From assembly GCA_041907025.1 (NCBI GenBank), contig JAYRIB010000004.1, forward strand, positions 1,223 through 65,222: 64,000 nucleotides of DNA, written 5' to 3'. The translations under genes and the position numbers were made by a program. The notes under the pieces are model-generated. The model was not told where the DNA came from. It made no database searches and saw only the letters and a program-made list of their open reading frames with translations. Shown piece by piece: positions 12,137 through 39,616 of this stretch (position 1 is its first letter; every line of letters starts with the position of its first letter). The DNA is from Candidatus Saccharimonadia bacterium. GTDB taxonomy: Bacteria; Patescibacteriota; Saccharimonadia; CAILAD01; JADZBC01.

Positions 12137-15100
12137 ATGGCTCCCAACGCCACACCACCTAAGCCTACGCTTCGATCCAAACTTCACTTGCGACCCTCAA
12201 CTTCTCTGAAAGTGAGTAAGGCGTCTGTATTTACCCTCCTGGCACTTATATCCATCCAAACCGTCAGTAGTGCCTTGCTTTGGTACGCCGGTAAGATCAA
12301 GGCTGACAGCAGTAGCCGAGTAGTAACTACGAGCCCGGCAAGTAGCGTTACTACTACCGGCGCTACGCTCAGTGGCACATACGATTACCCCACAGATGTT
12401 ACTCAGCGTGGCTTCCAGTATGGCTTGACTACTGGCTATGGCAGCCAAGTGGTGGATGACAGTGTGATGACATACGTGGATACGGGTATACTGGGCGGCG
12501 TAGATACGTCAAGCGGTAGTAGTGGCTACGCTACGGATTCCACGGGGAACCTATACTTGACTCACTTTGATGACCACACAAGTGCAAGTGTGCAAAAGTA
12601 CAGTGCAAGTGGCACTCTTGTATCTGAGTTCGGTTCACAGGGCGCAGGAGACGGGCAGTTTGACACTCCGCAGGATGTTGCTTTAGACACGAGCGGGAAC
12701 ATCTATGTCGCTGACACTAATAATAATAGGGTGCAGAAGTTGGATAGCACTGGTAATTACGTGAGCCAGTTTGACCCACTTGAGCAGGGTAGTGGTAAAT
12801 ACATCGTAGTGACTAGGGTTTCCTTAGATAGTCTAGGTAATATATACGTTTTTGGACACTGGGATAGTGATCCGGGTATATCGAATAATTGGCAGCCAGT
12901 AGTTCAGAGGTATAACGCCAGTGGCGTGTTTCAAACCCAGTTAATCAACAGTTCTGGTACGGCAACTAATCAGCTATACTCATATGCGCAAAATACCGAC
13001 CTGACAACTGATACAAGTAATAATCTATACATTACTGATGCTTATAATCACCGGGTGCTCAAATACGACAGTAGTGGCAATTTCTTGGCTCAGTGGGGAA
13101 CAACTGGCGTTGCTAGCAACGCCCCAGGCCAGTTTAATCTTCCAACTGGCATCGCGCGTGGGCCTGGCGGGCAATTGTATATTTCAGATGGCGGGAATGA
13201 CAGGGTTCAAATCATCAGCCCAGCAGGGGATTACGTACAGAGTTGGTCAGACAATCAAATTGGGTTTCCACTTAATTTAACAGTGAGCCTGAACGGTAAG
13301 ATATACGCCCAATCATGGGGGGGTGCTGGAGGCTTGGTTGTTGGTACACCATCAATCAATGCGAATATCACAAGCCTCCAGTGCGACACTACCTACCATT
13401 ACCGTGCCTTTACTACTGATGCAGACAGTACTGAATACGGTTCAGACGCTACATTTACAACAGATGCTTGTACGGGGTTGCGTAACATAACTAATTTGCC
13501 CACGACCAGCATAAGTCAAACGGGGGCTACACTCCACGGCGCTACAGATTACCCACAGGGCATTACTGGGCGCGGCTTCCAATACGGGTTAACGACTGGT
13601 TATGGTAGCACGGTAGTGGACAGTTCGGCTGTAAACGCAAGTTTTGGCAGTAAGGGGGTAACTAGTTTAAGCGGGACTACAGCGATTGACCTATCTGTCG
13701 ATGCTAACGGCTATAAGTACGTTGCATATTATGGTGATCATGTTGTTAAGAAATATGATGCCTCCAATAATCTCGTGCTTCAGTGGGGCTCAGAAGGGCT
13801 TGGGGCCGGTCAGTTCGGTGGTATTTCTGGGATTACCGCTGCGCCGGATGGCTTTGTTTATACTACGGAGTATTATCTCCAGAATGGTGGAGATATTCTT
13901 TCAAACCCCCGGGTTCAGAAGTTTGACTCCAATGGAAATTTCATTACCCAGTGGGGTTCGTTAGGGTCAGGCGATGGGCAGTTTTCAGCTCCTAAAGATG
14001 TCGCTGTAGACAAGAGTAATAACGTGTATGTTGTAGACTACAACCGCGTTCAGAAGTTTGACTCCAATGGAAATTTCATTACCCAGTGGGGTTCGTTAGG
14101 GTCAGGCGATGGGCAGTTTTCAAACCTAAGTGGTATCGCAATTGCCCCAGATGGCTCTGTGTATGTATCAGACAGGAGTAATGCCCGTATACAGAAGTTT
14201 AGTTCCAGTGGAACATTTATTCTGAAATGGGGTCAGCCGGGGGGTATGGGTGATGGTGAGTTCATCGCCCCTGAGCGAGTCGGAGTAGACGGGTCGGGCA
14301 ATGTATACGTATTGGATTATGCTGGTGGCACATTAAGGATGCAGAAGTTTGATTCAAACGGCAGTTTCCTGGCTCGTTTCGGCGGTTATTTCTATTTTGG
14401 TACCGGACTTTCTGTTACGCCATCCGGTCAGGTATATACCATAGATGCAGCTTCCACTACAGACTACTACACATATGGTATTGATGCCCCTATCACTACT
14501 CTTACCTGTGGCACAGAGTACCACTATCGTCCATACGTAACAGATCGTGGCGGCACGCAGTATGGAAACGATGCAACATTTACAACATCTGCCTGCCCGC
14601 CACTTAACATCACCACAACTAGTTTGGATGATGGCGTGGTTGGCGTGAGTTACTCTGATCTCATTACGGTCGATAATCTCCAGGGTGGCGAGACGTATAC
14701 GGTTAGTTCCGGAAGCGTGCCCCCAGGGTTGACACTTGGGTCGACAACTGGGTATTTGGAAGGGATTCCCTCACAGGAAGGACATTATTTCTTCGATGTA
14801 ACAGTTGAGAATTCTGGATCAAGCGACACCGCGCAAATAGATGTTCATATTTATAACACAAACCCACAATTAAGTATCACGACTGTGGCTATTCCGGACA
14901 CCCAAGTCGGCGCTTCGTATCAGGAATACATCTACACCAGTGACGGTGTGGGTGATGTGAGCTTCAGTATAACTTCAGGTGCGCTACCAGATGGTATGTC
15001 TATTACCTCGTACGGCACGAGCGGGGTATTGTACGGTACTCCAACTACTCCAGGGACCTATACCTTCACCGTGCAAGCTCAGGATAGCCGTGGGGCTGGT

Positions 15101-17272
15101 GTCGGCACTGATACACAGGAGTACTCCATAACGGTCTCGGCGGCTAGTATTAATATCACTACTACCAGCTTGCCGTCAGGTCTAGTGGGCTTGCCATACA
15201 ATAAAAGTATCGATTATGAGTCTGCTAACGCTCAGCCGGTCTTTTCACTTGTTTCTGGAACTTTACCTCCAGGTGTTTCTCTAACCCTTCAGGGCTATCT
15301 GCAAGGCACCCCAACGCAACAAGGTACTTACGATTTTACGGTGCAAGCCGATGATGGTTTTAGTACGGATACCCAGGCACTTAGCTTGCTCATAGGGGCA
15401 CCGGCGGCAGTTACTCCTAATACGCCTTTCGTAAAAATCACTTCGCCAGCGAATGGGGGCTCTATTGGGGCTACAAAGCTTGACGTAGCAGGTATTGGTC
15501 CTGCAGGCAATAAGGTCATACAGCTAACGATAGATAATGTTGTGCAAGGTACAACGAATACGGATAATGAAGGCAAATGGGCATATCAAGCAAGTGGTCT
15601 AAACCCAGGTTCTCATACACTGAGTGCCACTTGGGTTCCGGGCGACGATGTGGCTTTTGTGCCGTTCTTTAACCCCGAAACTTTCTCGAGCGGGATTTCG
15701 GTGATAGATAATGCTAGCTTGCAAACGGTGAAGACAATATACCTCCCAGAATATTCCTTGGCATATGGAGTAACACTCAACCATGCTCGTACTAAGTTGT
15801 ACGCATATGGGGGGCAGCTAAACTTGGGAGAGGGTGAACTTACGAGCTCTGCACAGCTATGGGAGGTTGATCTGGCAACTATGGCTATCCGCACGGTAGG
15901 TTATCCAAGTATGCCTGCCCAAATTGGCTTTGTTACTGCAGTTAACATCTCGCCAGACGACACAGGAGTCGTCCTGCTGAAGATGGAGGGCGGAGAACAG
16001 GCACAACAGGTACTAATCTCACGAGTAGATTTACCAAGCTTCACACCTACAGGGACAGACATTCAGGCTGAAGCTTTAAATACGCCAGCTGTAGTTGATA
16101 GGTTCTTTGAGCTTGCTTTAGCAAGAGCTTACACGTACAGTACCGATTCACAGCAGCGCTACATGTACTTCTTGCTAAGCGCCCTCGATGACGCACCAAG
16201 CAGTAATGAAGTGGTTGTTATTGATACACTAGATGGTAGCTCGAGTACGATCGAGCTTGGTGAGGGGGCTGAATATATACCTAAGGTAATTCAGACTGTA
16301 GGAGATAGGCTCTATGTACTCACCAGCTCGCATCTCCTCACTATTGATGTCGTTACGGGAGGTATTCTGAGCGACATTACTCCAGGTTTCAGTATCGATG
16401 GCTCCGCTTTTGGGTCCGTTGTGTTTGATGTCCCCCCAGATGGTTTGACCGCACTGCTTAGCACATCGGGATTTGGTAACTCCACTACTGTTGTTAGTAT
16501 TGACCTTGCTTCGGGCCAGTCGACTATTCTTCCGAATAGTATCGAAACCAGTAGGCGGCTGGCTAGGGCACTTGGTAAACAAGGCCCTATAGGCATAGGT
16601 ACAACTAGTGATGGTTCTAGGCTATATATTTCATCTCAGGGCCTGTATATATTTGATATGGCCAACGGGGTACCAATTGACCTGGCTGGGTTGCTCCCGC
16701 CAGGTGCAGAGGCCTCGGGACTTACAAGTCATGACTACATTGCCCCTATTCGCCCTCGAGATACCATCGCTTTTACCGTTGCTTCTGGTCCCGTATCGTG
16801 TACCACTACCAACACCTGTCCACCACCGCCGCCTTGTGCTGTGACCAACACCTGTCCACCGCCACCACCGCCCCCGACTGAACCAGCCACAGTCGGCACT
16901 ACCAATCCTAAGACTCCCAAGATTGTGGTTACACCCTTCCCACCAGCGGCATCTGCAGCCTCACGCCTGGGGTGGTTTGACCGCGGTGTTCTGGCGGTGG
17001 CTCGCTTTGTACCTGGGCAAGCAGCCATTGGTTTTCCGTTCCTCTTGTTCCTGCTCTTGCTCCTGTTTGCCCTCTCCCTGTACTATCAGTCTGCCAATGA
17101 GGTCCGTAAGGACAAGCTTAACCGTCAGTTCCTCGCCAAGCGTAAGTCCATCCGAGCGCAACAAGACAACTTTATAGCCCTGGCCTCACACTATCTCAAC
17201 ACCCCAATTACGATTATTCAGAATGGTATAGAGGTGATGGAGGAGTCGAGTAGGGGGCCAAAGAGTAAGTAA
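12137..17272 (+). CDS. giant cell-surface protein (1711 aa): NHL repeats, fibronectin/Ig-like (He_PIG-type) modules, poly-Pro linker, C-terminal TM and HisKA-like tail
   Basis: N-terminal signal anchor; at least 8 NHL-like repeats (NNRVQKFDSNGNFITQWGSLGSGDGQF); repeated modules TGATLSGTYDYPTDVTQRGFQYGLTTGYGS and CDTTYHYRAFTTDADSTEYGSDATFTTDAC; four He_PIG-like Ig modules (TLPPG..L...G.L.GTPT..GTY.FTV); TTNTCPPPPP x2; TM FPFLLFLLLLLFALSL; C-terminal FIALASHYLNTPITIIQNGIEVMEE. Confidence 0.8.
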   Translation: MAPNATPPKPTLRSKLHLRPSTSLKVSKASVFTLLALISIQTVSSALLWYAGKIKADSSSRVVTTSPASSVTTTGATLSGTYDYPTDVTQRGFQYGLTTGYGSQVVDDSVMTYVDTGILGGVDTSSGSSGYATDSTGNLYLTHFDDHTSASVQKYSASGTLVSEFGSQGAGDGQFDTPQDVALDTSGNIYVADTNNNRVQKLDSTGNYVSQFDPLEQGSGKYIVVTRVSLDSLGNIYVFGHWDSDPGISNNWQPVVQRYNASGVFQTQLINSSGTATNQLYSYAQNTDLTTDTSNNLYITDAYNHRVLKYDSSGNFLAQWGTTGVASNAPGQFNLPTGIARGPGGQLYISDGGNDRVQIISPAGDYVQSWSDNQIGFPLNLTVSLNGKIYAQSWGGAGGLVVGTPSINANITSLQCDTTYHYRAFTTDADSTEYGSDATFTTDACTGLRNITNLPTTSISQTGATLHGATDYPQGITGRGFQYGLTTGYGSTVVDSSAVNASFGSKGVTSLSGTTAIDLSVDANGYKYVAYYGDHVVKKYDASNNLVLQWGSEGLGAGQFGGISGITAAPDGFVYTTEYYLQNGGDILSNPRVQKFDSNGNFITQWGSLGSGDGQFSAPKDVAVDKSNNVYVVDYNRVQKFDSNGNFITQWGSLGSGDGQFSNLSGIAIAPDGSVYVSDRSNARIQKFSSSGTFILKWGQPGGMGDGEFIAPERVGVDGSGNVYVLDYAGGTLRMQKFDSNGSFLARFGGYFYFGTGLSVTPSGQVYTIDAASTTDYYTYGIDAPITTLTCGTEYHYRPYVTDRGGTQYGNDATFTTSACPPLNITTTSLDDGVVGVSYSDLITVDNLQGGETYTVSSGSVPPGLTLGSTTGYLEGIPSQEGHYFFDVTVENSGSSDTAQIDVHIYNTNPQLSITTVAIPDTQVGASYQEYIYTSDGVGDVSFSITSGALPDGMSITSYGTSGVLYGTPTTPGTYTFTVQAQDSRGAGVGTDTQEYSITVSAASINITTTSLPSGLVGLPYNKSIDYESANAQPVFSLVSGTLPPGVSLTLQGYLQGTPTQQGTYDFTVQADDGFSTDTQALSLLIGAPAAVTPNTPFVKITSPANGGSIGATKLDVAGIGPAGNKVIQLTIDNVVQGTTNTDNEGKWAYQASGLNPGSHTLSATWVPGDDVAFVPFFNPETFSSGISVIDNASLQTVKTIYLPEYSLAYGVTLNHARTKLYAYGGQLNLGEGELTSSAQLWEVDLATMAIRTVGYPSMPAQIGFVTAVNISPDDTGVVLLKMEGGEQAQQVLISRVDLPSFTPTGTDIQAEALNTPAVVDRFFELALARAYTYSTDSQQRYMYFLLSALDDAPSSNEVVVIDTLDGSSSTIELGEGAEYIPKVIQTVGDRLYVLTSSHLLTIDVVTGGILSDITPGFSIDGSAFGSVVFDVPPDGLTALLSTSGFGNSTTVVSIDLASGQSTILPNSIETSRRLARALGKQGPIGIGTTSDGSRLYISSQGLYIFDMANGVPIDLAGLLPPGAEASGLTSHDYIAPIRPRDTIAFTVASGPVSCTTTNTCPPPPPCAVTNTCPPPPPPPTEPATVGTTNPKTPKIVVTPFPPAASAASRLGWFDRGVLAVARFVPGQAAIGFPFLLFLLLLLFALSLYYQSANEVRKDKLNRQFLAKRKSIRAQQDNFIALASHYLNTPITIIQNGIEVMEESSRGPKSK

Positions 17273-19206: not shown

Positions 19207-19610
19207 AGTTAGTCAGTGAGTGATCGCTCCACGGCGCAAGCCAAGGAGAGGAAAGTCCGAACAGCGTAGAGTAGGGTGGTTGCTAACGGCAACCGAGGGA
19301 GACCTTAGGGAAAGTGCCACAGAGACAATACCGCCCCTCACATTTATGGCAACATAAAAGGTGCGGGGTAAGGGTGAAAAGAGTGCGGTAAAAGCGCACA
19401 GCGGACCTTAGGTGACTAGGTCTGGAGGTAAACCCCACCTGCTGCAAGACTATGGGCCCCGTCGCAAGACAGAGTTACTCGCTCTTAGTTGGGTTTGTCG
19501 CATGATGTAGCCTTCGGGCTGCACGCCAACTGTAGCAATGCAGGAGGAAGATAGATGATCACAGCTAGCCTTCGGGTTAGACACAGAATTCGGCTTATAG
19601 CTGACTAACT
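19207..19610 (+). ncRNA. rnpB: RNase P RNA (bacterial type A)
   Basis: P1 pairing AGTTAGTCAG/CTGACTAACT; conserved P4 and other blocks GGAAAGTCCGAACAGC, AGGGAAAGTGCCACAGAGACAA, GGTAAACCCCACCTG, ACAGAATTCGGCTTATAG. Confidence 0.85.
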
Positions 19611-19695
19611 AGGCACTTATTTTGTTATATTTACTTCTCAGCAGGCACAAGGGAAAGTTTCATACGCTATTATGCTAGAATAAGAGATAACGACC

Positions 19696-32146: not shown

Positions 32147-32524
32147 GGGGCTGACCAGCTTCGACGTTGGATTCTTGACATATAACTGCAAGCCGCCTGA
32201 TCGACGTTACAGATCAATCACAATAAGTGCAAACACTTTTGTTAGCAAAGTAAAAGCTGCTTTTAGCATGCCAAGCTTTGCGCCAGCTTACGCCTAAAAA
32301 CGTTCGCCGCCTATTGCGCCTGACATCAGATGAAGCGCAGGGCGTCACAGTATCTGGTTGCTTAGCTATCGTTCTATCCGGTAGCTCCTAAGACGCAGAA
32401 TAGAGGAGTGATGAGTATGTTTGGCTCGCTTTAAGTGCCTGTACCTCCCAAAACAACCACCAAGCAAGCTAAGCTTGTAGTACGTTATAGAGACAGACTA
32501 GCGGACCAGGGTGCGATTCCCTGC
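32147..32524 (+). ncRNA. ssrA: tmRNA (SsrA)
   Basis: 5' GGGGCUGACCAGCUUCGACG matches the tmRNA 5' consensus GGGGCUGAUUCUGGAUUCGACG. The 3' end GGACCAGGGUGCGAUUCCCUGCAGCUCCACCA is the tRNA-like T-arm/acceptor/CCA. Candidate tag ORF GCA AAC ... GCC TAA at 32229-32297 (ANTFVSKVKAAFSMPSFAPAYA*); its frame is uncertain. TATAGT -10 at 32131-32136. Confidence 0.8.
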
Positions 32525-32542
32525 AGCTCCACCAAAGCTCTT

Positions 32543-32567
32543 ATGCTTAGAAGACCAGGTTAAATGC
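32543..32567 (+). terminator. intrinsic terminator after ssrA
   Basis: ACCAGG ttaaatg CCTGGT followed by TTTTTTG. Confidence 0.6.
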
Positions 32568-32867
32568 CTGGTTTTTTGTATTATAAACAGAGAGAGGGTA
32601 GATGCACTTGCTGCTATTCTCGCCATACTATAAGGACAACGACAGGAAGCACCTTGCCAGAAGGGGGCATGATGGTTACAGGAGGAAAACTCTATTCATT
32701 TGGTATGACGTCATGCTACAATCGTGCCATCAGTTAAGTATTGTACTGCTGAAGATCCTTATACCCTTTGAGAGCGGCGTCTTGTGTTTATTTCGCCCAT
32801 AAGACGCCGCTCTCAACAAAAGTTGAGCTACCTCATCGGTAGTTTCTACGGCAAAGGAGCTATTTCC

Positions 32868-33407
32868 ATGCAAGGTGATTCGCAAACCGAGGTCGTAGCA
32901 ATCGACCTCAGCAAGCCGTGGCAGGTCGTCGAGATGACGGCCGAAGAGTTCCTGCTTCGTATGGCAGCGATCGGTCCGTACAAGGACATCAACCTGGTCG
33001 GCTCGTTTGCCGATCCTGATGACCAGGCAGCCCGCACCGCTCACCGCGACAAGGACCTGCCCTGGCATCGCGACGGCATCGAGAGCCAGGCCATCAAGGA
33101 CATGCAGGGCGGCAGGTACATCACGGCGCCGAACGTGGACGTGGTTGGGATGTACTGCCTCCGCGACAACCGAGAGCCCGGGTCGGACGTCCGCACACCG
33201 TGCTACACGGTGCTCGCGGAAGCCGCGCCCGATGCTGACCCGTACGACGACTCCCAGTTCGCGATCGTGGCCGAGGTTGATCTGCGACCGGGTCAGGCAC
33301 TCATCTGGGACAACCGTCTCTGGCATCGACGCCATGGGCCGGTCGGCAGTCGGGTGAACATCCGCTTCTGGTCGACCTGCCCTGCGCTGTACGAGGTCCG
33401 GCCATGA
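32868..33407 (+). CDS. Fe(II)/2-oxoglutarate dioxygenase-like protein (TauD/TfdA-like motifs), high-GC gene
   Basis: LPWHRDG (HxD) and C-terminal ALIWDNRLWHRRHGPVGSRVNIRF, which resembles TauD WDNR..H.A......R.M.R. Third-position GC is very high and AAAGGAG lies 7 nt upstream. The ORF extends to 32784 through low-GC non-coding-looking sequence. Confidence 0.4.
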   Translation: MQGDSQTEVVAIDLSKPWQVVEMTAEEFLLRMAAIGPYKDINLVGSFADPDDQAARTAHRDKDLPWHRDGIESQAIKDMQGGRYITAPNVDVVGMYCLRDNREPGSDVRTPCYTVLAEAAPDADPYDDSQFAIVAEVDLRPGQALIWDNRLWHRRHGPVGSRVNIRFWSTCPALYEVRP

Positions 33408-33934
33408 TCTTGCCGGAAGGAGCGGCGGTCGTAGGATGTCGACGCTGTGGTGTCGACATCTTCCAGGAGGAAGGTGGGAAGTGGGCAACAGTTGCCTACC
33501 CCATTGCCGACCCTTATGACTGTGAGGGGGGCGCACATGCTCCTGCGGGCAGCCTCTTCGAGCTCGGCCCGTTCGCTCTTCCTGATGGGCGTGTGACGGG
33601 CTTCAAGATCGAGTGCGATCTCGTGGAGCTGGAATCGTGGGCGGCTCTCGCCCGGGTTGCGGCTGAGCTCCTGGATCCGTTCGGTGCCGTCGAGGGCGTA
33701 CCCCGAGGCGGGGTGGCGTTCGCGGAGGCGCTTGAGCCGTACATCGATCCTTCGAGCAAGACGCTCCTGATCGCCGATGACGTGTGGGTCAGCGGCACTT
33801 CGATGGAGCGCCACCGAGCTGGCCGAGACGCCTTTGGCGTTGTGGCCTTCGCTCGGAACCCCGTGGCGCAGTGGGTCAAGTCGATCCTCTCCCTCAACCC
33901 CGAGGCTGAGGCAGCCACATACCGGCTTCAATAG
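33404..33934 (+). CDS. Zn-ribbon plus phosphoribosyltransferase-domain protein (ComF/PRTase-like), high-GC gene
   Basis: N-terminal CRRCG...DCEGG; PRTase motifs VEGVPRGGVAFAEALE and KTLLIADDVWVSGTSM. ATGA overlap with the upstream gene. Confidence 0.4.
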   Translation: MILPEGAAVVGCRRCGVDIFQEEGGKWATVAYPIADPYDCEGGAHAPAGSLFELGPFALPDGRVTGFKIECDLVELESWAALARVAAELLDPFGAVEGVPRGGVAFAEALEPYIDPSSKTLLIADDVWVSGTSMERHRAGRDAFGVVAFARNPVAQWVKSILSLNPEAEAATYRLQ

Positions 33935-34289
33935 CTCAACAACGTTAACCATCGTCGGCATATGTTGTATGGGTTACCGCGATACACAGTCTGGGTTCGT
34001 GCGACCACAATCGCACTGACCTGCCAGTCCGCATGGACCGTCTACTGGAGCGTCATTCCAGGGCTCGATTGAAGGATCGAGCCACTACCCAAGTGCATAA
34101 TCCAGTGATTATGAGTTTAGGTGGTATAGTGCTAATCCCTCACGTTACTCAACCCAGCTGTGTACCTAGAGTAGGGGGTAGCTAGAATCTCCCTCCATCG
34201 ACCTGATTCAGCCATTAGTTCGTGCCACAAAAAACGTACCCGCTCCACCAAAAGGGATTTTCGTGACTCACAAAGATCTTTGTTTGCTG

Positions 34290-34847
34290 TTAGCCCGAGG
34301 GAGTAGTGATTCTGGCCTGTATTGTCTTGTCTACGAAGTGCAAAGTCTTGGCCTTGTTATGTTCAAGAGTGGCCGCCCACTTGATTGCTTCAAGCTTGTT
34401 AATCTCCGAGCGTTCGGCATCTGACAGGCAGTTATGTGCTACGGCAAAGCCAATGTGGTAATTATCTCCATATACCTCACGGAATAAGTATTCAGCTCTT
34501 TGGGCGTGAAACTGGCTTGTGACTACAACAATGCTTTCCCAGCAGTTGGCTTCAACAATCTTTTTGGTGTAGATTGCGTTCTCGTAGGTACTTTTAGATT
34601 TATTCTCAATCAGGATCTTTGCGGGAGGAAAGCCCTGTAATACTGCGTAATCTGCCATCGCTTGGGCCTCTGACTTTTTAGGAGTGTATGAGTGGATGTG
34701 TGCAACATTACCAGACATTACTAGTTGTTTAGCCCCCACCTCCTTATAAAGCTGAATTCCTGTGCGAACTCGACTAGCCCCTTCTTCTGGAAGAGTACCG
34801 TCTGGTCTGACATCAAAGCCAAGAATGATCACTGCGTCATACGTCAT
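34290..34847 (-). CDS. DUF218 (YdcF/SanA/ElyC-like) protein
   Basis: AVIILGFDVRPDG...LVMSGNVAHI...SEAQAMADYAVLQGFPPAKILIENKSKSTYENAIYTKKIV...IVVVTSQFHAQRA follows the DUF218 pattern. GC is native-like. Confidence 0.55.
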   Translation of the reverse strand: MTYDAVIILGFDVRPDGTLPEEGASRVRTGIQLYKEVGAKQLVMSGNVAHIHSYTPKKSEAQAMADYAVLQGFPPAKILIENKSKSTYENAIYTKKIVEANCWESIVVVTSQFHAQRAEYLFREVYGDNYHIGFAVAHNCLSDAERSEINKLEAIKWAATLEHNKAKTLHFVDKTIQARITTPSG

Positions 34848-34999
34848 ATGATTAGTATAACTTATGCAGACATAATAATAGTCATGCTTGGGTGGAATCT
34901 TGAGATATACCTACAATCTGTTATTATAGGCTCTGAACCTTTACTCAACCAATTCCAACCTGCTGGCTCCCGCCGGCCCAATCGCCCAGGGGGCAAGAT

Positions 35000-36052
35000 A
35001 TGGCAGTTTCAACTCGTCAGCACAAGTCTGGCGCAGAGCAACGCAAGTACGTGCTGCAAAAGCCGTACACCATCAAGGGTCGCGATGAGAGGCCAGATAG
35101 GGTGGTCGGCTCCGTTGTGACGGACTCTGACTTCAGCAAGGGCGACATCGTGCCCTGGCTGCTCACGGCAGAGGAAGACAGGAAGCGTGTGCACGGACTA
35201 CGTCGGTCCACCGGACAGGCGAGCTGGTGGGAATACCCCATCTTCCGCGGACTCATCACCCTGATCGGTCGCGTGTTGATCAAGCGCGTCTTCGTCGATC
35301 AGCACAAGATCCCCGGCGGCTTGGGCTTCTATCCGAAGTTCTACCGTCGTGGCCGGCTTTCATCCAAGGCTGGTCGCTGCGAGTTCACCTTCATTGCGGC
35401 GCCTACTCACGCCGATGAGCGGGACATCCTGATCACAGGGTCGTTGGCTCGGCCCTTGGTCTGGACCTGCAAGCCATGGTTTTGCTCTGGCCCCATGTGG
35501 TTGGCTTTGCTCAACCACTACAACGGTGCCTTGCCTATCTTTCGGCCTCAGATCGACGGTATTTACCATCCCAAGAAGAACACACTGGCAATGATCCATC
35601 ATCACCAGATGCGCTCGCATAGGGGTTCGGAAGCTCTCGACATCGTCACGGCACGTCTCTTGGAGGGTAACTCCGCTGAGTTCTTCATCGAAGGGACCAG
35701 GCTTGGGGCTAGTGAGGTCTCATCTGGCTTCTTTGGTGCAATCAGGGTCTCTCGAAGGACAGGTGTTCCGATTCTTCCAATCGCCATCGTCGGCGTGTCG
35801 GAAGGTGATCCGGTGGTTCGCCCGGGATTGTTGCCCTGGCGCCGGGTGGTCCTTGCGGTTGTTTGCAAGCCAATCTACCCGGTTGGATTCGTGGGTACTG
35901 ACGAGGAATGCGAGCAAGCCATGATGGCTGCTTGGACCGGCGCCGTCAACGAAGGGCGTGCCAGGGGTCGAGAGTTGGTTTTGCAGCACGGCCGCCATAG
36001 GGGCGTTGTGCCGCCCAAGCGGACCAAGCCCGCTGAATCGGCTGAGGGGTAG
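35000..36052 (+). CDS. PlsC/LPLAT-family acyltransferase, high-GC gene
   Basis: HxxxxD motif APTHADERD and motif III FFIEGTRLG. Very high third-position GC in a low-GC flank. Confidence 0.45.
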   Translation: MAVSTRQHKSGAEQRKYVLQKPYTIKGRDERPDRVVGSVVTDSDFSKGDIVPWLLTAEEDRKRVHGLRRSTGQASWWEYPIFRGLITLIGRVLIKRVFVDQHKIPGGLGFYPKFYRRGRLSSKAGRCEFTFIAAPTHADERDILITGSLARPLVWTCKPWFCSGPMWLALLNHYNGALPIFRPQIDGIYHPKKNTLAMIHHHQMRSHRGSEALDIVTARLLEGNSAEFFIEGTRLGASEVSSGFFGAIRVSRRTGVPILPIAIVGVSEGDPVVRPGLLPWRRVVLAVVCKPIYPVGFVGTDEECEQAMMAAWTGAVNEGRARGRELVLQHGRHRGVVPPKRTKPAESAEG

Positions 36053-36099
36053 TAGTAAAGAGGTGGTGTGATGGGTGGATTGGGCCCATCACACCACAT

Positions 36100-36126
36100 G
36101 GCCTAGCACTATGCTAGGCCTCTTTT
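36100..36126 (+). terminator. intrinsic terminator after the acyltransferase gene
   Basis: Perfect hairpin GGCCTAGCA cta TGCTAGGCC plus TCTTTT. It is preceded by a second perfect 11-bp inverted repeat, GGTGTGATGGG...CCCATCACACC, at 36063-36093. Confidence 0.65.
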
Positions 36127-36292
36127 ATTAGTGTTATTTCCCGACGCCGTTCGCACGGGTTAAGCATCTAGAGTAGAGGCGTAGTTGATCGTATAGAGGT
36201 TGAGTACACCCCTACTAAAGACTCGGATTGCCTTCGGCCTCCTTGAAGTAGTATCATATACGTAAGAGGAATGAAACAATGGGCGGTACAGT

Positions 36293-37480
36293 ATGTTGCC
36301 AGTAACTAGGGGCACAATTGATAACTTGCAGCAATCAGTCGATCAAACGTCTGAAGCGCTGGATAGTTATGCCCAAAAGCAGCCTAAGCAGGCCGAGGAG
36401 CTCAGAGAGCACATAACTGCTATGGCCAAGATAGTAGGTGGGTTGTCGGCCAAGATTAATGCTGTTGATAGGCTGGGTGAGAAGAATTACTTTATACCAG
36501 ATCCTAAGAACCCACTGCTGAGCGCGGCTTTCTTGGCGCCTGTACTTATCTTGATGGTAGTAGTTACCGTCTCAATCTGGTTATTTAACTTGGCAGGCTT
36601 ATTGGGCTCAGACATCATCTATATTGTTACTCTAGGGGTGGGCTTGCTTCTGGTTATGCAGGTGTTGGTGAGCAACATTCGCAACCTACAGCTCCGTCGG
36701 CGGATCGCCAAGCAGTCAGGCACTGCGATTAACGAGGAGCTGCAGCTTGAGCACGCTCGGGCGGAGTTCTTCAAGGCTGCCACCGATGAGTTGCAGGGGC
36801 ATTTGTTTGCGATAACTTCGGCGATCCCACGGGGGAGCGACCCTGCAATCGATGACGCGGCTCAACGGCTTATTACACTCCTTGATCGTATGGCTCTGAT
36901 TTCAACGCTAACAAACCGCGGCGCCGACTACGTGCTCAATACCGAGCCTGTTGATATGCCTGTGTTACTTTCGCAGATCATAGCTAATAGTCATACTCAG
37001 GCTCAGGCGGCGGGGGTACAGGTGAAGCTTGATGCTCCTAAGCAGCTCACCTACGAACTCGACCCACTTTTGCTCACCCAGGCTATCTCCCCAGTGCTGG
37101 ACAACGCTATCAAGTTTTCAAAGGACGCTCAGGCTGGCGGTCGAGTTCTGGTGGCATTAAAGCCAATACATCGTGGTTTTGAGCTCAAAATTGCTGATAA
37201 TGGTCCAGGCATTAGTCTTGAGCGTAGATCCCAGCTGTTTAAGCCATTCTCGCGAGGCGAAGACGCGCTACGCTTTAATTACGAAGGCGCCGGGCTTGGG
37301 CTTTACCTTACGAGCCTCGCAACAGGCCTCCTGGGGGCGTACGTGGAAATTGGTAATCCCAAGGCAGGGACTGAAATTATCTGGAGGTTTGATTCTCTGG
37401 TGCCAACCTCGCCTGAACAGTCTAGGGCTAAGCCTGGGCACAAACCAGCTCACAATACGCTTTCTCCTGCAGCGCACTAA
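36293..37480 (+). CDS. sensor histidine kinase (two TM helices, HisKA plus HATPase_c)
   Basis: Two TM helices, H-box region ...ELQGHLFAITSAI..., and ATP-binding motifs DNGPGISLERRSQLFKPFSRG and GAGLGLYLTS. Confidence 0.7.
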   Translation: MLPVTRGTIDNLQQSVDQTSEALDSYAQKQPKQAEELREHITAMAKIVGGLSAKINAVDRLGEKNYFIPDPKNPLLSAAFLAPVLILMVVVTVSIWLFNLAGLLGSDIIYIVTLGVGLLLVMQVLVSNIRNLQLRRRIAKQSGTAINEELQLEHARAEFFKAATDELQGHLFAITSAIPRGSDPAIDDAAQRLITLLDRMALISTLTNRGADYVLNTEPVDMPVLLSQIIANSHTQAQAAGVQVKLDAPKQLTYELDPLLLTQAISPVLDNAIKFSKDAQAGGRVLVALKPIHRGFELKIADNGPGISLERRSQLFKPFSRGEDALRFNYEGAGLGLYLTSLATGLLGAYVEIGNPKAGTEIIWRFDSLVPTSPEQSRAKPGHKPAHNTLSPAAH

Positions 37481-37601
37481 CTTACTGCGGATATGTCTTT
37501 TAGCTCCAAGGTCAACTCAAGTTTACTAGCCGAGGAGAAATTCTGTCGATACACTACTGATTGACGCGTCGATGTAGTGTAAATAAGATGGGAGTATAGT
37601 T

Positions 37602-38315
37602 ATGAGTCTAGAAATTAAAATTCATGCGGCCCAAGTGAGCATATTGCGTGAGCTGCTGTTCCACCCGAGTGCGGGGTTTGCTCAGCTACAACGGCCTACT
37701 GGCCTGACGAGCGATCACTTTACCTTCCACATTGGTAGGTTAGTTGAGCTTGGCTTGGTCGAGAGGGCCGCACGGCGCCAATACAGGCTTACGCAGCTGG
37801 GTAAGGAATACGCCAATAGGTTAGACACCGACAATAATACAGTTGAGCGTCAACCCAAAACGGCAGTGATTCTGGCCATTGAGCGCACAACGAGCAGTGG
37901 CACCGTGCAATATGTCTTCCAGGAGCGACTTAAGAACCCGTATTACGGCTTTTGGGGCTTACCGACGGGTAAAGTGCGCTGGGGTGAAACAATCCTTCAG
38001 ACGGCCGAGCGTGAGCTCCTAGAGGAGACGGGGTTAATGGCGGACTTTAGAATTGCGGGCGTGTACCATGAGCAGGTGTTGTCTGAAGAAAGTGGGGATA
38101 TGCTTGAAGACAAGATCTTCTTTGTGGCCCACGGCACAAACCCGCGGGGTGATCTGCTTGAGGAGTTTGAGGGTGGGGCGAATCAATGGTTGAGTTTTGA
38201 CGATGCACATAAAAAGGCCAAGAAGTTTGATAGCTTTGAGATGGAGCTTGATATTCTTTCATCCAAAGAGTGGCTGATTGAACGCAAGACACGCTATAGT
38301 GCCGATCTTTTCTAG
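37602..38315 (+). CDS. wHTH DNA-binding domain fused to a C-terminal NUDIX hydrolase domain
   Basis: N-terminal MarR/ArsR-like wHTH (...FHIGRLVELGLVER...) and Nudix box GLPTGKVRWGETILQTAERELLEETGL. Confidence 0.55.
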   Translation: MSLEIKIHAAQVSILRELLFHPSAGFAQLQRPTGLTSDHFTFHIGRLVELGLVERAARRQYRLTQLGKEYANRLDTDNNTVERQPKTAVILAIERTTSSGTVQYVFQERLKNPYYGFWGLPTGKVRWGETILQTAERELLEETGLMADFRIAGVYHEQVLSEESGDMLEDKIFFVAHGTNPRGDLLEEFEGGANQWLSFDDAHKKAKKFDSFEMELDILSSKEWLIERKTRYSADLF

Positions 38316-38335
38316 CGGGTAGCAGGGGTCGATTA

Positions 38336-38380
38336 GGCAATAACAAAAGGCAGCGATGTGCTGCCTTTTGTTATAACCAG
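38336..38380. terminator. bidirectional intrinsic terminator (15-bp perfect stem); a second hairpin follows at 38399-38450
   Basis: ATAACAAAAGGCAGC gatgt GCTGCCTTTTGTTAT, then AAAGCTCCGC...GCGGAGCTT plus TTTTTTG. Confidence 0.65.
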
Positions 38381-38560
38381 TGATACGCGCGGATGGGCAA
38401 AACAAAAGCTCCGCTTGGGTTTTAACCTGTTGCGGAGCTTCTTTTTTGCTTTGTTTTTGTTTTTGAGTAATTTATGTGTGCAGCACTGAATCTATAATAA
38501 AACTTATGCATAGTGACTGTCAACAACTTTTTAGCAAAAAAGTTGTGGATAAACCAAAGT

Positions 38561-39616
38561 TTATGATTTCGGAGTAAATATCTCCATGGATGCTCGGTAC
38601 TCGCCAGCCCGCGCTGCGCTGTTGCATGCTAGCCGGTGGTAGAAGATTTTTTGTGCTTCGGCCACATTCTTGGCTTTGCCAAGCCAGGCCTTCATGGCAG
38701 GATCCTGCACAGCACGGGAGAAGGAGAAGGTTATTGGCCACGCTTGCTTGCCAGCCAGACTAAGGGCATTGAGGTTGGCGCTTGCTTGGGTCGGGCTCTG
38801 TCCACCTGAGAGGAAGACCACGGCGCCAACTTCTGGCGGTACGGCAGCTTTGAGGCTGCGCAACGTAGCGGCACCAACCTCATCGGCCGTGGACTGGTGG
38901 GGGTTGGCTTTTCCTGCCAGCACAAAGCTGGTCTTGATGATGACGCCGCGCAAGTCGACGCGGTAGGCACGGACAATCTCGATAGTGGTTGCCAGTACTC
39001 GCGTAGTGGTATGCTCGGCCTGCTCCAAGCTATGTGGGCCGTCGTAGATCACCTCAGGTTCAATGATTGGTACGATGCCGTGCGACTGGCAAATGCTAGC
39101 GTAGCGACCAAATACATTGCCGTTAGCATGAATAGCGGCCTCTGTGGGGGTGGTAGGACCAATAGTGAATGCAGCGCGCCACTTCGCAAAACGTGCGCCC
39201 AGGCGAGCATACTCAGCCAAGCGCTTGTCCAGGCCATCAAGCCCTTCGGTTATCTTCTCGCCGGGGAAGTTTGTGAGATCGACCAGGCCCATGTCTACCT
39301 TAATTCCGGGTATGATTCCTTTGGACATGAGGTATTTCGGAAAGCCCACCCCGTCGTCGGTACTCTGATGGATGGTCTCGTCGTACAATATAACGCCACT
39401 AATGAAGTCATTGAGGTTTGGTGTGGTAAAGAGTAGGTGACGCCAATTACGACGTGTTTCTTCGTTGACGGGCAAGTGCAGCGCCTCCAGGCGTGCGTTC
39501 GCGCTCTTCGTACTCTCGTCTGCTGCCAAAATGCCTTTACCGGGGTGCAAGAGGTGATCGATGGTGGCATAGAGCCGAGTGTGATGTTCTTGTGCACTGA
39601 TCTGGTCTGGACGCAT
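38561..39616 (-). CDS. fba: class I fructose-bisphosphate aldolase
   Basis: GKGILAADESTKSANARLEAL... and Schiff-base-lysine-region similarity to class I (eukaryote-type) FBA. Confidence 0.75.
   Translation of the reverse strand: MRPDQISAQEHHTRLYATIDHLLHPGKGILAADESTKSANARLEALHLPVNEETRRNWRHLLFTTPNLNDFISGVILYDETIHQSTDDGVGFPKYLMSKGIIPGIKVDMGLVDLTNFPGEKITEGLDGLDKRLAEYARLGARFAKWRAAFTIGPTTPTEAAIHANGNVFGRYASICQSHGIVPIIEPEVIYDGPHSLEQAEHTTTRVLATTIEIVRAYRVDLRGVIIKTSFVLAGKANPHQSTADEVGAATLRSLKAAVPPEVGAVVFLSGGQSPTQASANLNALSLAGKQAWPITFSFSRAVQDPAMKAWLGKAKNVAEAQKIFYHRLACNSAARAGEYRASMEIFTPKS

Follow-up and report, generated by a model that had tools for sequence, protein, structure and literature searches.

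Under the definition used by Islander and TIGER, genomic islands are found at tRNA and transfer-messenger RNA (tmRNA) genes, where they may also form tandem arrays, and for Islander every island must contain an integrase (PMC4383910). The locus considered here invites comparison with these islands, with the cassette arrays of integrons and, as far as one of its genes is concerned, with the acyltransferase PlsC; it is an unusual variant of tDNA-targeted islands. It lies within a stretch of 64,000 nucleotides from a Candidatus Saccharimonadia bacterium (contig JAYRIB010000004.1; hereafter the window, to which all coordinates refer unless a related contig is named by its handle, such as L002), in which the tmRNA gene ssrA is followed by a variable region that contains an open reading frame (ORF) for a PlsC-type acyltransferase of 350 amino acids (35000-36052, plus strand). 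The reading that we favor, with a probability of roughly 70%, is that a functional PlsC-like acyltransferase module resides in this cassette region downstream of ssrA as an accessory unit that has been exchanged between lineages whose backbone genes are saturated with synonymous changes.

The variable region is anchored on ssrA itself (32147-32534, plus strand), which is recognized both by Rfam (RF00023, 87.8 bits) and by ARAGORN. Backbone homology to L024, the closest relative found, stops at 32535, at the 3' end of ssrA, and restarts at 36220; in the comparisons with L024, L025 and L002, the end of homology falls at 32535/32536. The 3.7 kb in between (32536-36219) are hypervariable and hold a high-GC cassette, a DUF218 gene and the acyltransferase, and the backbone resumes at 36220-36292 (plus strand) with the promoter region of a histidine-kinase gene, which is homologous to that of L024 and includes a promoter-like site at 36228-36257. 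The last nine nucleotides of ssrA, GCTCCACCA (32526-32534), constitute a core that is repeated within the region. In L005, an assembly of the same species in which the acyltransferase is 99% identical, two extra units, A and C, are inserted exactly at GCTCCACCA (L005 1-3783); cassette A carries a 130-amino acid ORF and cassette C has ORFs of 112 and 178 amino acids, none of which has a match in Pfam, PHROGs or PADLOC. A first-pass annotation of the window, made from the sequence alone, had argued for repeated gene acquisition at this locus, and the two extra cassettes of this 99%-identical strain bear that out.

The high-GC unit next to ssrA, which we denote cassette B (32535-34250, plus strand; GC content 62-64%), comprises a hairpin that would terminate ssrA, ORFs at 32868-33407 and 33404-33934, and a conserved right end; its counterpart in L005 (690-2448), which has other cassettes on its flanks, is 96.8% identical. 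A near-perfect hairpin with 19-nucleotide arms that are 95% complementary and an 11-nucleotide loop (32768-32816) is located shortly upstream of its first ORF. The right end, about 125 bp in length (34124-34250, plus strand; nhmmer E = 3e-38 with a profile built from seven copies), has the ssrA core, in direct orientation, as its last nine nucleotides (34242-34250). Eight full right ends were detected in five genomes, namely one in the window, three in L005, one in L024, two in L025 and one in the distant L007 (E = 2e-10), with related copies in L009, and their consensus reads GTGCTAATCCCT ... CTAGAGTAGGG ... TCTCCCTCCA-CGACCTGATTCAGC ... TCGTGCCAC-(A/T)6-CGTAC-CGCTCCACCA. Following the core, most units open with a hairpin and a T-run that would terminate ssrA, and the hairpin and T-run that come after cassette B (34251-34289, plus strand) match the sequence directly after ssrA in L002 and are read as a displaced ssrA terminator. 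A displaced direct fragment of the ssrA 3' end is present for cassette B and for the cassettes of L005, L024, L025 and L007, and none is found for the acyltransferase module. The right ends and the core copies at unit boundaries are best understood as the footprint of site-specific insertion at ssrA. The first-pass annotation had described two independent patches of foreign-looking DNA; these turn out to be parts of one cassette array anchored on ssrA, a gene which that annotation had not seen.

How, then, does this array compare with the described systems? As in tRNA and tmRNA islands, the region begins with an intact ssrA (32147-32534), its units are bounded by directly oriented copies of the ssrA 3' end, each unit supplies a replacement ssrA terminator, and close strains differ by the exact presence or absence of units. 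However, the units measure only 0.7-1.7 kb and contain one or two genes, no integrase gene is present inside the island, no more than 9 bp of ssrA are displaced, every cassette with a recognizable end shares the terminal sequence of about 125 bp, and the acyltransferase module lacks an intact end. With integron arrays, the locus shares small cassettes of one or two genes in tandem at a single chromosomal site, a conserved end resembling a recombination site on each cassette, and a cassette content that varies by strain. Unlike integrons, it has no adjacent intI or attI that we could find and is flanked instead by GT4 and histidine-kinase genes, insertion occurs at the ssrA 3' end, the acyltransferase cassette comes with its own promoter and terminator, and the right end lacks an attC-like hairpin. 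The idea that the right end might be a structured RNA or an attC-like fold was dropped, given that the consensus of the eight right ends folds with only -3.3 kcal/mol and shows no covariation. Two other candidates were likewise set aside: a classical att repeat of the ssrA T-arm, for which a search with 25 nucleotides and up to three mismatches returned only the gene itself (the actual repeat, as found by k-mer search, is 9-11 nucleotides long), and a core-like GCTCCACC at position 11405 of L002, which falls within coding sequence and probably arose by chance.

No match to an integrase was obtained for any cassette ORF, and in Pfam, PHROGs and PADLOC the cargo yields no significant match, no defence or phage genes and no integrase fragments, the single exception being phrog_8937 for a 142-amino acid ORF of L020. 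The cassette-end patterns gave only chance matches in IMG/VR (in Gly-rich coding regions and phages of 32% GC) and the pattern was not matched in the JGI metagenomes; in the literature we found no description either of the acyltransferase family or of ssrA cassette arrays in Patescibacteria. In mechanistic terms, the cassettes would be inserted site-specifically at the ssrA 3' end by a recombinase that is presumably supplied in trans, and the acyltransferase module itself could move by the same mechanism based on the ssrA core. A more ambitious generalization would be an undescribed integron-like system of this clade, in which tiny cassettes that lack an integrase and often have their own promoters are added serially at the ssrA 3' end, a trans-acting recombinase recognizes the 125-bp end together with the 9-bp core, and the array serves as a shared, partly high-GC gene pool for genes of envelope and lipid remodelling; we put this forward tentatively, as an account that is possible and still short of probable. 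In L020, a 19-nucleotide direct copy of the ssrA 3' end is located 168 bp after ssrA (L020 3810-3986); being longer than the 9-nucleotide core seen elsewhere, it suggests a different crossover point. The tmRNA gene of L008 (L008 629-1027) is recognized by Rfam (77.7 bits) and missed by ARAGORN.

Within the variable region, the acyltransferase and its flanks behave as a unit of insertion or deletion (34875-36219, plus strand), as defined by blastn breakpoints, by the junction sequences and by its absence from L025 and L024. The predicted module is self-contained, with a promoter, a leader, the ORF and a double terminator. The promoter (34900-34927, plus strand) is of the sigma-70 type, TTGAGA-16-TATTAT with an extended -10 TG, which amounts to 10 of 12 matches, and both boxes keep their position in L002, L003, L004 and L007. 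The 5' leader (34928-34999, plus strand) contains a small hairpin (34962-34977) and a Shine-Dalgarno sequence, AGGGGG (34988-34993); the hairpin recurs in orthologues although its arms differ in sequence (window, GCTGGC/GCCGGC; L003, GCTGG/CCAGC; L007, GCCGA/TCGGC), a pattern that does not amount to formal covariation, and it could be an element of stability or regulation. Downstream of the ORF, there are two hairpins on the plus strand, as the first-pass annotation had noticed. The first of these (36063-36097) has a 14-bp stem with one G-U pair and is preserved among orthologues, in which one base pair has changed in a compensatory manner. The second, which together with its T-tract spans 36100-36129, has a 9-bp stem and a 3-nucleotide loop, GGCCTAGCA-CTA-TGCTAGGCC (36100-36120), followed by TCTTTTATT; this GC-rich stem-loop with a T-tract has the form of an intrinsic (Rho-independent) terminator, is called as a terminator and is also kept in the orthologues. 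The joint fold of both hairpins reaches -45 kcal/mol (z = -6.6), and not one of 200 shuffled sequences folds as well.

Evidence of exchange comes from presence and absence, from synonymous divergence (dS) and from a discordant copy in L020. The acyltransferase is carried by L002, L003 and L007; nevertheless, it is missing from L024 and L025, which by ArgRS are closer to the window than L003 and L007 are. In L025 (ArgRS 67% identical), the DUF218 gene directly adjoins the histidine-kinase gene and the segment 34875-36219 is missing, and in L024 (ArgRS 88% identical), the equivalent slot is occupied by a different gene, followed by a decayed cassette right end (E = 9e-4). The gene in this slot (L024 5154-5795) resembles a mycobacterial-type RNase AS (NF033638, E = 5e-21, below the cut-off). 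With L002, the window shares a block of low divergence (34896-36132, plus strand; 87.5% nucleotide identity) that starts a few nucleotides ahead of the -35 box and takes in the whole terminator, compared with 65-81% (median about 73%) in the flanking backbone blocks, and within which the 5' non-coding 102 nucleotides are 91% identical. For the acyltransferase gene in this pair of genomes, dS is 0.36 and the difference at 4-fold degenerate sites is 0.257, against 0.72 expected at saturation, whereas the backbone genes give dS values of 3.66 (GT4b), 2.65 (GT4a), 2.39 (L20) and 1.23 (IF3), with GalT, Mg-chelatase, DUF4446 and bactofilin saturated and 4-fold differences of 0.59-0.69 in all cases except IF3 (0.37). 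A dS of 0.36 next to a saturated backbone implies horizontal exchange. In L020, the housekeeping genes group with L003 and L007 (ArgRS 62-66%), whereas the acyltransferase is only 30-32% identical to those of L003 and L007 and is closer to the copy of L008. Judging by the presence and absence pattern, the dS contrast and the discordance of L020, the acyltransferase belongs to the mobile fraction of these genomes, and the view of the first-pass annotation that this is acquired or exchanged DNA is upheld.

The same approach changes the status of the DUF218 gene (34290-34847, minus strand; PF02698, E = 1e-28). It is indeed a gene of low GC content (45.9%) on the opposite strand, as had been stated, but not the native gene between two insertions that it had been taken for. 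The block around it (34088-34874) is 84.5% identical to L025, and between these two genomes the DUF218 gene has a dS of 0.48 and a 4-fold difference of 0.245, compared with 0.72-0.79 in the backbone; furthermore, the gene is absent from L024 and L002. Since its dS is this low while the backbone is saturated, DUF218 is part of the exchanged region and not a native spacer. Between the window and L024, dS in the backbone is 0.9-1.2. The histidine-kinase gene that borders the array (36293-37480) shows, against L024, a dS of 2.8 with 86% amino acid identity, its neighbors having a dS of 0.9-1.2 and 88-97% identity.

Could the acyltransferase still be a native, vertically inherited gene that has always been located downstream of ssrA and owes its GC content to a protein rich in Arg, Gly, Pro and Trp together with codon selection? 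The linkage is deep: in the window, L002, L003, L007, L008 and L020, no more than about 2.5 kb separate ssrA from a family member downstream of it, and in L009 the family member is next to ssrA-core repeats, so that the association extends from the window to L008 and L020 at 30-37% identity. In addition, the acyltransferase identities between L003 and L007 and between the window and L003 fall inside the backbone range, about half of the GC excess is compositional, the GC3 excess is barely over the native maximum, and high GC content is common to the whole family. What renders vertical descent improbable is the low dS between the window and L002 against a saturated backbone, together with the 91% identity of the non-coding 5' flank in this pair, the absence from the two genomes that are closer by ArgRS than some of the carriers, and the L020 copy that disagrees with the L020 housekeeping genes. 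An earlier argument that acyltransferase identity tracks that of the flanking genes and hence reflects vertical descent was dropped after the identity matrix and the dS tests. Conversely, the pair L003-L007 was not retained as additional evidence of exchange, being ambiguous: ArgRS is equally divergent there and synonymous sites are saturated.

A more trivial explanation would be that the assembly is chimeric or the bin contaminated, with reads from a foreign high-GC source joined to the contig; this idea draws on the composition steps at the ORF edges and on the fact that the L002 contig ends 375 bp past the gene. However, L001, an independent Logan assembly (SRR26835457), aligns without gaps to 6,220 bp of the window (32258-38477) at 99.95% identity and spans both acyltransferase junctions, and L005 (DRR359555), a second independent assembly, has the acyltransferase with the same flanks. 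In five further assemblies (NCBI, JGI and ENA), orthologues are found at this site, and the low-GC promoter and leader move together with the gene. Since the same junctions recur in independent assemblies, the locus is not a misjoin, as the first-pass annotation had also argued, and an artifact of this kind is hardly conceivable.

The ORF at 35000-36052 is a real, intact gene. Its GC content is 59.2%, compared with 50.7% for the whole window, and its GC at the first, second and third (GC3) codon positions is 0.60, 0.48 and 0.70, respectively, against 0.58, 0.40 and 0.54 in the pooled native genes; GC and GC3 are raised, but less than reported initially, and the figure of about 65% is too high, the peak in 200-bp windows being 62%. 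The GC steps coincide with the edges of the ORF. When the protein is re-encoded with native synonymous codon usage, the GC content becomes 55.0%, so that about 4 of the 8.4 excess GC points are due to amino acid composition (Arg 10.0% against 5.4%, Gly 10.0% against 7.3%, with Pro and Trp also raised). About 5 points are attributable to a GC3 excess of 0.15 (z = 2.6), barely above the native maximum of 0.139, and native neighbor genes reach a GC3 of 0.64-0.69. Furthermore, all 10 family members that were examined lie 6-13 GC points above their own neighborhood, even at 25-37% identity. The high GC content is hence a persistent property of the family and not a sign of recent arrival, and, because it is high wherever the family resides, local GC can neither date the acquisition nor name the donor. 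Candidate explanations include an unsampled high-GC reservoir, selection, and biased gene conversion at a recombination hot spot.

These considerations bear on the possibility that a gene of the PlsC or PatA type was recently captured from an actinobacterial host of high GC content, for which one could cite the raised GC and GC3, the presence of Mycobacterium PatA among the structural matches, and the resemblance of the L024 slot gene to a mycobacterial-type enzyme. Database searches argue strongly to the contrary. Among 5.8 billion protein clusters, there are only four close homologues; when 1.84 billion representative proteins were searched with a profile, 42 reached E <= 1e-3 and 13 of these E <= 1e-10, and a second, word-indexed protein search with the family alignment (best 8000 candidates) added little. 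No match was obtained among PLSDB plasmids, INPHARED phages or IMG/VR, a search of the JGI metagenomes gave the L003 contig only, and one of the GTDB species representatives gave only L002 and L007. Five distant relatives could be read in context; their contigs have a GC content of about 46-54% and genes of the Patescibacteria type, and the FBA-SmpB-ArgRS or the tmRNA neighborhood is retained in three cases. The relatives of the ArgRS of the window include entries labeled 'Patescibacteria group' and 'Candidatus Saccharibacteria'. As judged from these searches, the family is very small and found only on Patescibacteria-type contigs. It had been suggested that the protein might group with actinobacterial PlsC or mycobacterial-type acyltransferases; none such was found. 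With PlsC, moreover, outranking PatA in both sequence and structure, a recent actinobacterial donor appears very improbable.

What does the protein do? The first-pass annotation had called it a lysophospholipid-acyltransferase-family protein, and the assignment is sound: THADERD (residues 136-142) includes the HX4D dyad, H137...D142 (H137-A-D-E-R-D142; codons 35408-35425), FIEGTR occupies residues 229-234 (EGTR codons 35690-35701), and the match to PF01553 (Acyltransferase) scores 27.3 bits (E = 3.5e-6; curated cut-off 23 bits). Across 19 family members, H137, D142, K158, G176, R182, R234, G246 and P260 are invariant, which covers the named residues of blocks II-IV, NGALPIFR (G176, R182), IEGTR (R234) and VPILPIA (P260). 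The family profile matches Thermotoga maritima PlsC (PDB 5KYM) with E = 7e-16. The AlphaFold2 model has a predicted local distance difference test (pLDDT) score of 86.9 and a predicted template-modelling (pTM) score of 0.84, and a Foldseek search with it places PlsC first (E = 3e-9), followed by plastid GPAT, mycobacterial PatA and LpxM; the top 17 matches all belong to these four with probabilities of at least 0.98, at modest TM scores (0.40/0.55). By profile and by predicted fold, then, the acyltransferase is a member of the GPAT/LPLAT superfamily that is most similar to PlsC, and it is a new, divergent member of that known superfamily. With PlsC, it shares the HX4D, GAxPxxR, EGTR and VP(I/L)xP blocks, the alpha/beta core and two helices ahead of the catalytic domain, PlsC being the best match by profile as well as by fold. 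It differs in being only about 15% identical, about 100 residues longer and equipped with a lineage-specific N-terminus, and in that PlsC is encoded by a housekeeping gene whereas the gene in the window is accessory and mobile and its family nearly unsampled. In the chemistry that we infer, the lysolipid acceptor would have its hydroxyl activated by His137 and Asp142, its phosphate would be bound, like the acyl donor, by the IEGTR and VPILP blocks, and the two N-terminal helices would anchor a monotopic enzyme on the membrane, so that the protein, presumably expressed from its own promoter, would re-acylate lysophospholipids or a related lipid.

It is also conceivable that the same mobile gene acts on another substrate, namely a glycolipid or envelope precursor produced by the nearby GT4 and GalT enzymes, in the manner of PatA, the mycobacterial acyltransferase of phosphatidylinositol mannosides (PIM), or of LpxM. 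These two proteins share the superfamily fold and are significant structural matches (E = 5e-5 to 2e-4), two GT4 genes and GalT are located just upstream of ssrA, the canonical PlsC model is matched far under its cut-off, and PGM and FemAB genes are found close to the copies of L018 and L022. Yet the Foldseek matches to PatA and LpxM are weaker than that to PlsC, which ranks first by profile and by fold; no sequence-level match to either emerged in the family profile search; ssrA and the variable cassettes separate the acyltransferase from the GT4 genes; and L024 and L025 retain the GT4 genes without the acyltransferase. A glycolipid substrate thus strikes us as rather unlikely, albeit worth keeping in view.

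Several observations weigh against the reading of a mobile, PlsC-like cassette gene and should be considered together. Two family members, those of L018 and L022, reside at another locus, where no tmRNA is present. The NCBIfam PlsC model TIGR00530 (AGP_acyltrn) scores only 20.8 bits against a cut-off of 102.95, and with a score so far under the cut-off the assignment holds at the superfamily level only and does not fix the substrate. Our model does not explain the persistently high GC content of the family. Scans of most of the window ORFs revealed no integrase, and none was seen in the 10 kb around each array. An intact right end is missing from the acyltransferase module, and no ssrA core occurs between 36132 and 36219, at its distal end. 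What is found there is a weak, half-length match to the right-end profile, possibly the decayed first half of a right end (36128-36178, plus strand; E = 0.01 in the window and 0.0025 in L005), in the place where a right end would be expected, immediately 3' of the acyltransferase terminator. Finally, the deep linkage between ssrA and the acyltransferase is also compatible with an ancestral resident that was occasionally replaced by homologous recombination. Accordingly, the module may be an old, decayed cassette or else a long-term resident of the ssrA-proximal region that has been replaced through homologous recombination.

Elsewhere in the window and in the related genomes, some further observations deserve to be recorded. 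A non-coding block of about 100 nucleotides between the NUDIX and aldolase genes (38452-38562) is about 80% identical in the distant L003, L007 and L020, in which its coding flanks are saturated; it holds a perfect DnaA-box complement (TGTGGATAA) and TGTCAACA, matches no Rfam family and shows no switch of GC skew at this position. At one syntenic position (38561-39616 in the window), the window, L024, L025 and L008 have a class I aldolase (PF00274), and L003 (12000-12866) and L020 (7137-8003) one of class II (PF01116). The window also encodes a class A RNase P RNA (19208-19613, 212 bits) and an ORF of 1,711 amino acids (12137-17272).

Patescibacteria, tiny bacteria of a symbiotic type, have minimal genomes and are generally unable to make their own lipids. 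The present findings touch on two open questions, namely how these bacteria acquire and tailor their membranes and how reduced genomes gain new functions, and the locus provides a concrete, testable example in which a lipid acyltransferase is an accessory, exchanged module with precise boundaries at a hot spot, the ssrA 3' end. A cassette architecture of this kind would escape island finders that rely on an integrase, with its 125-bp end and 9-bp ssrA core, and such ssrA cassettes may represent a wider, overlooked route of gene flow in Patescibacteria.

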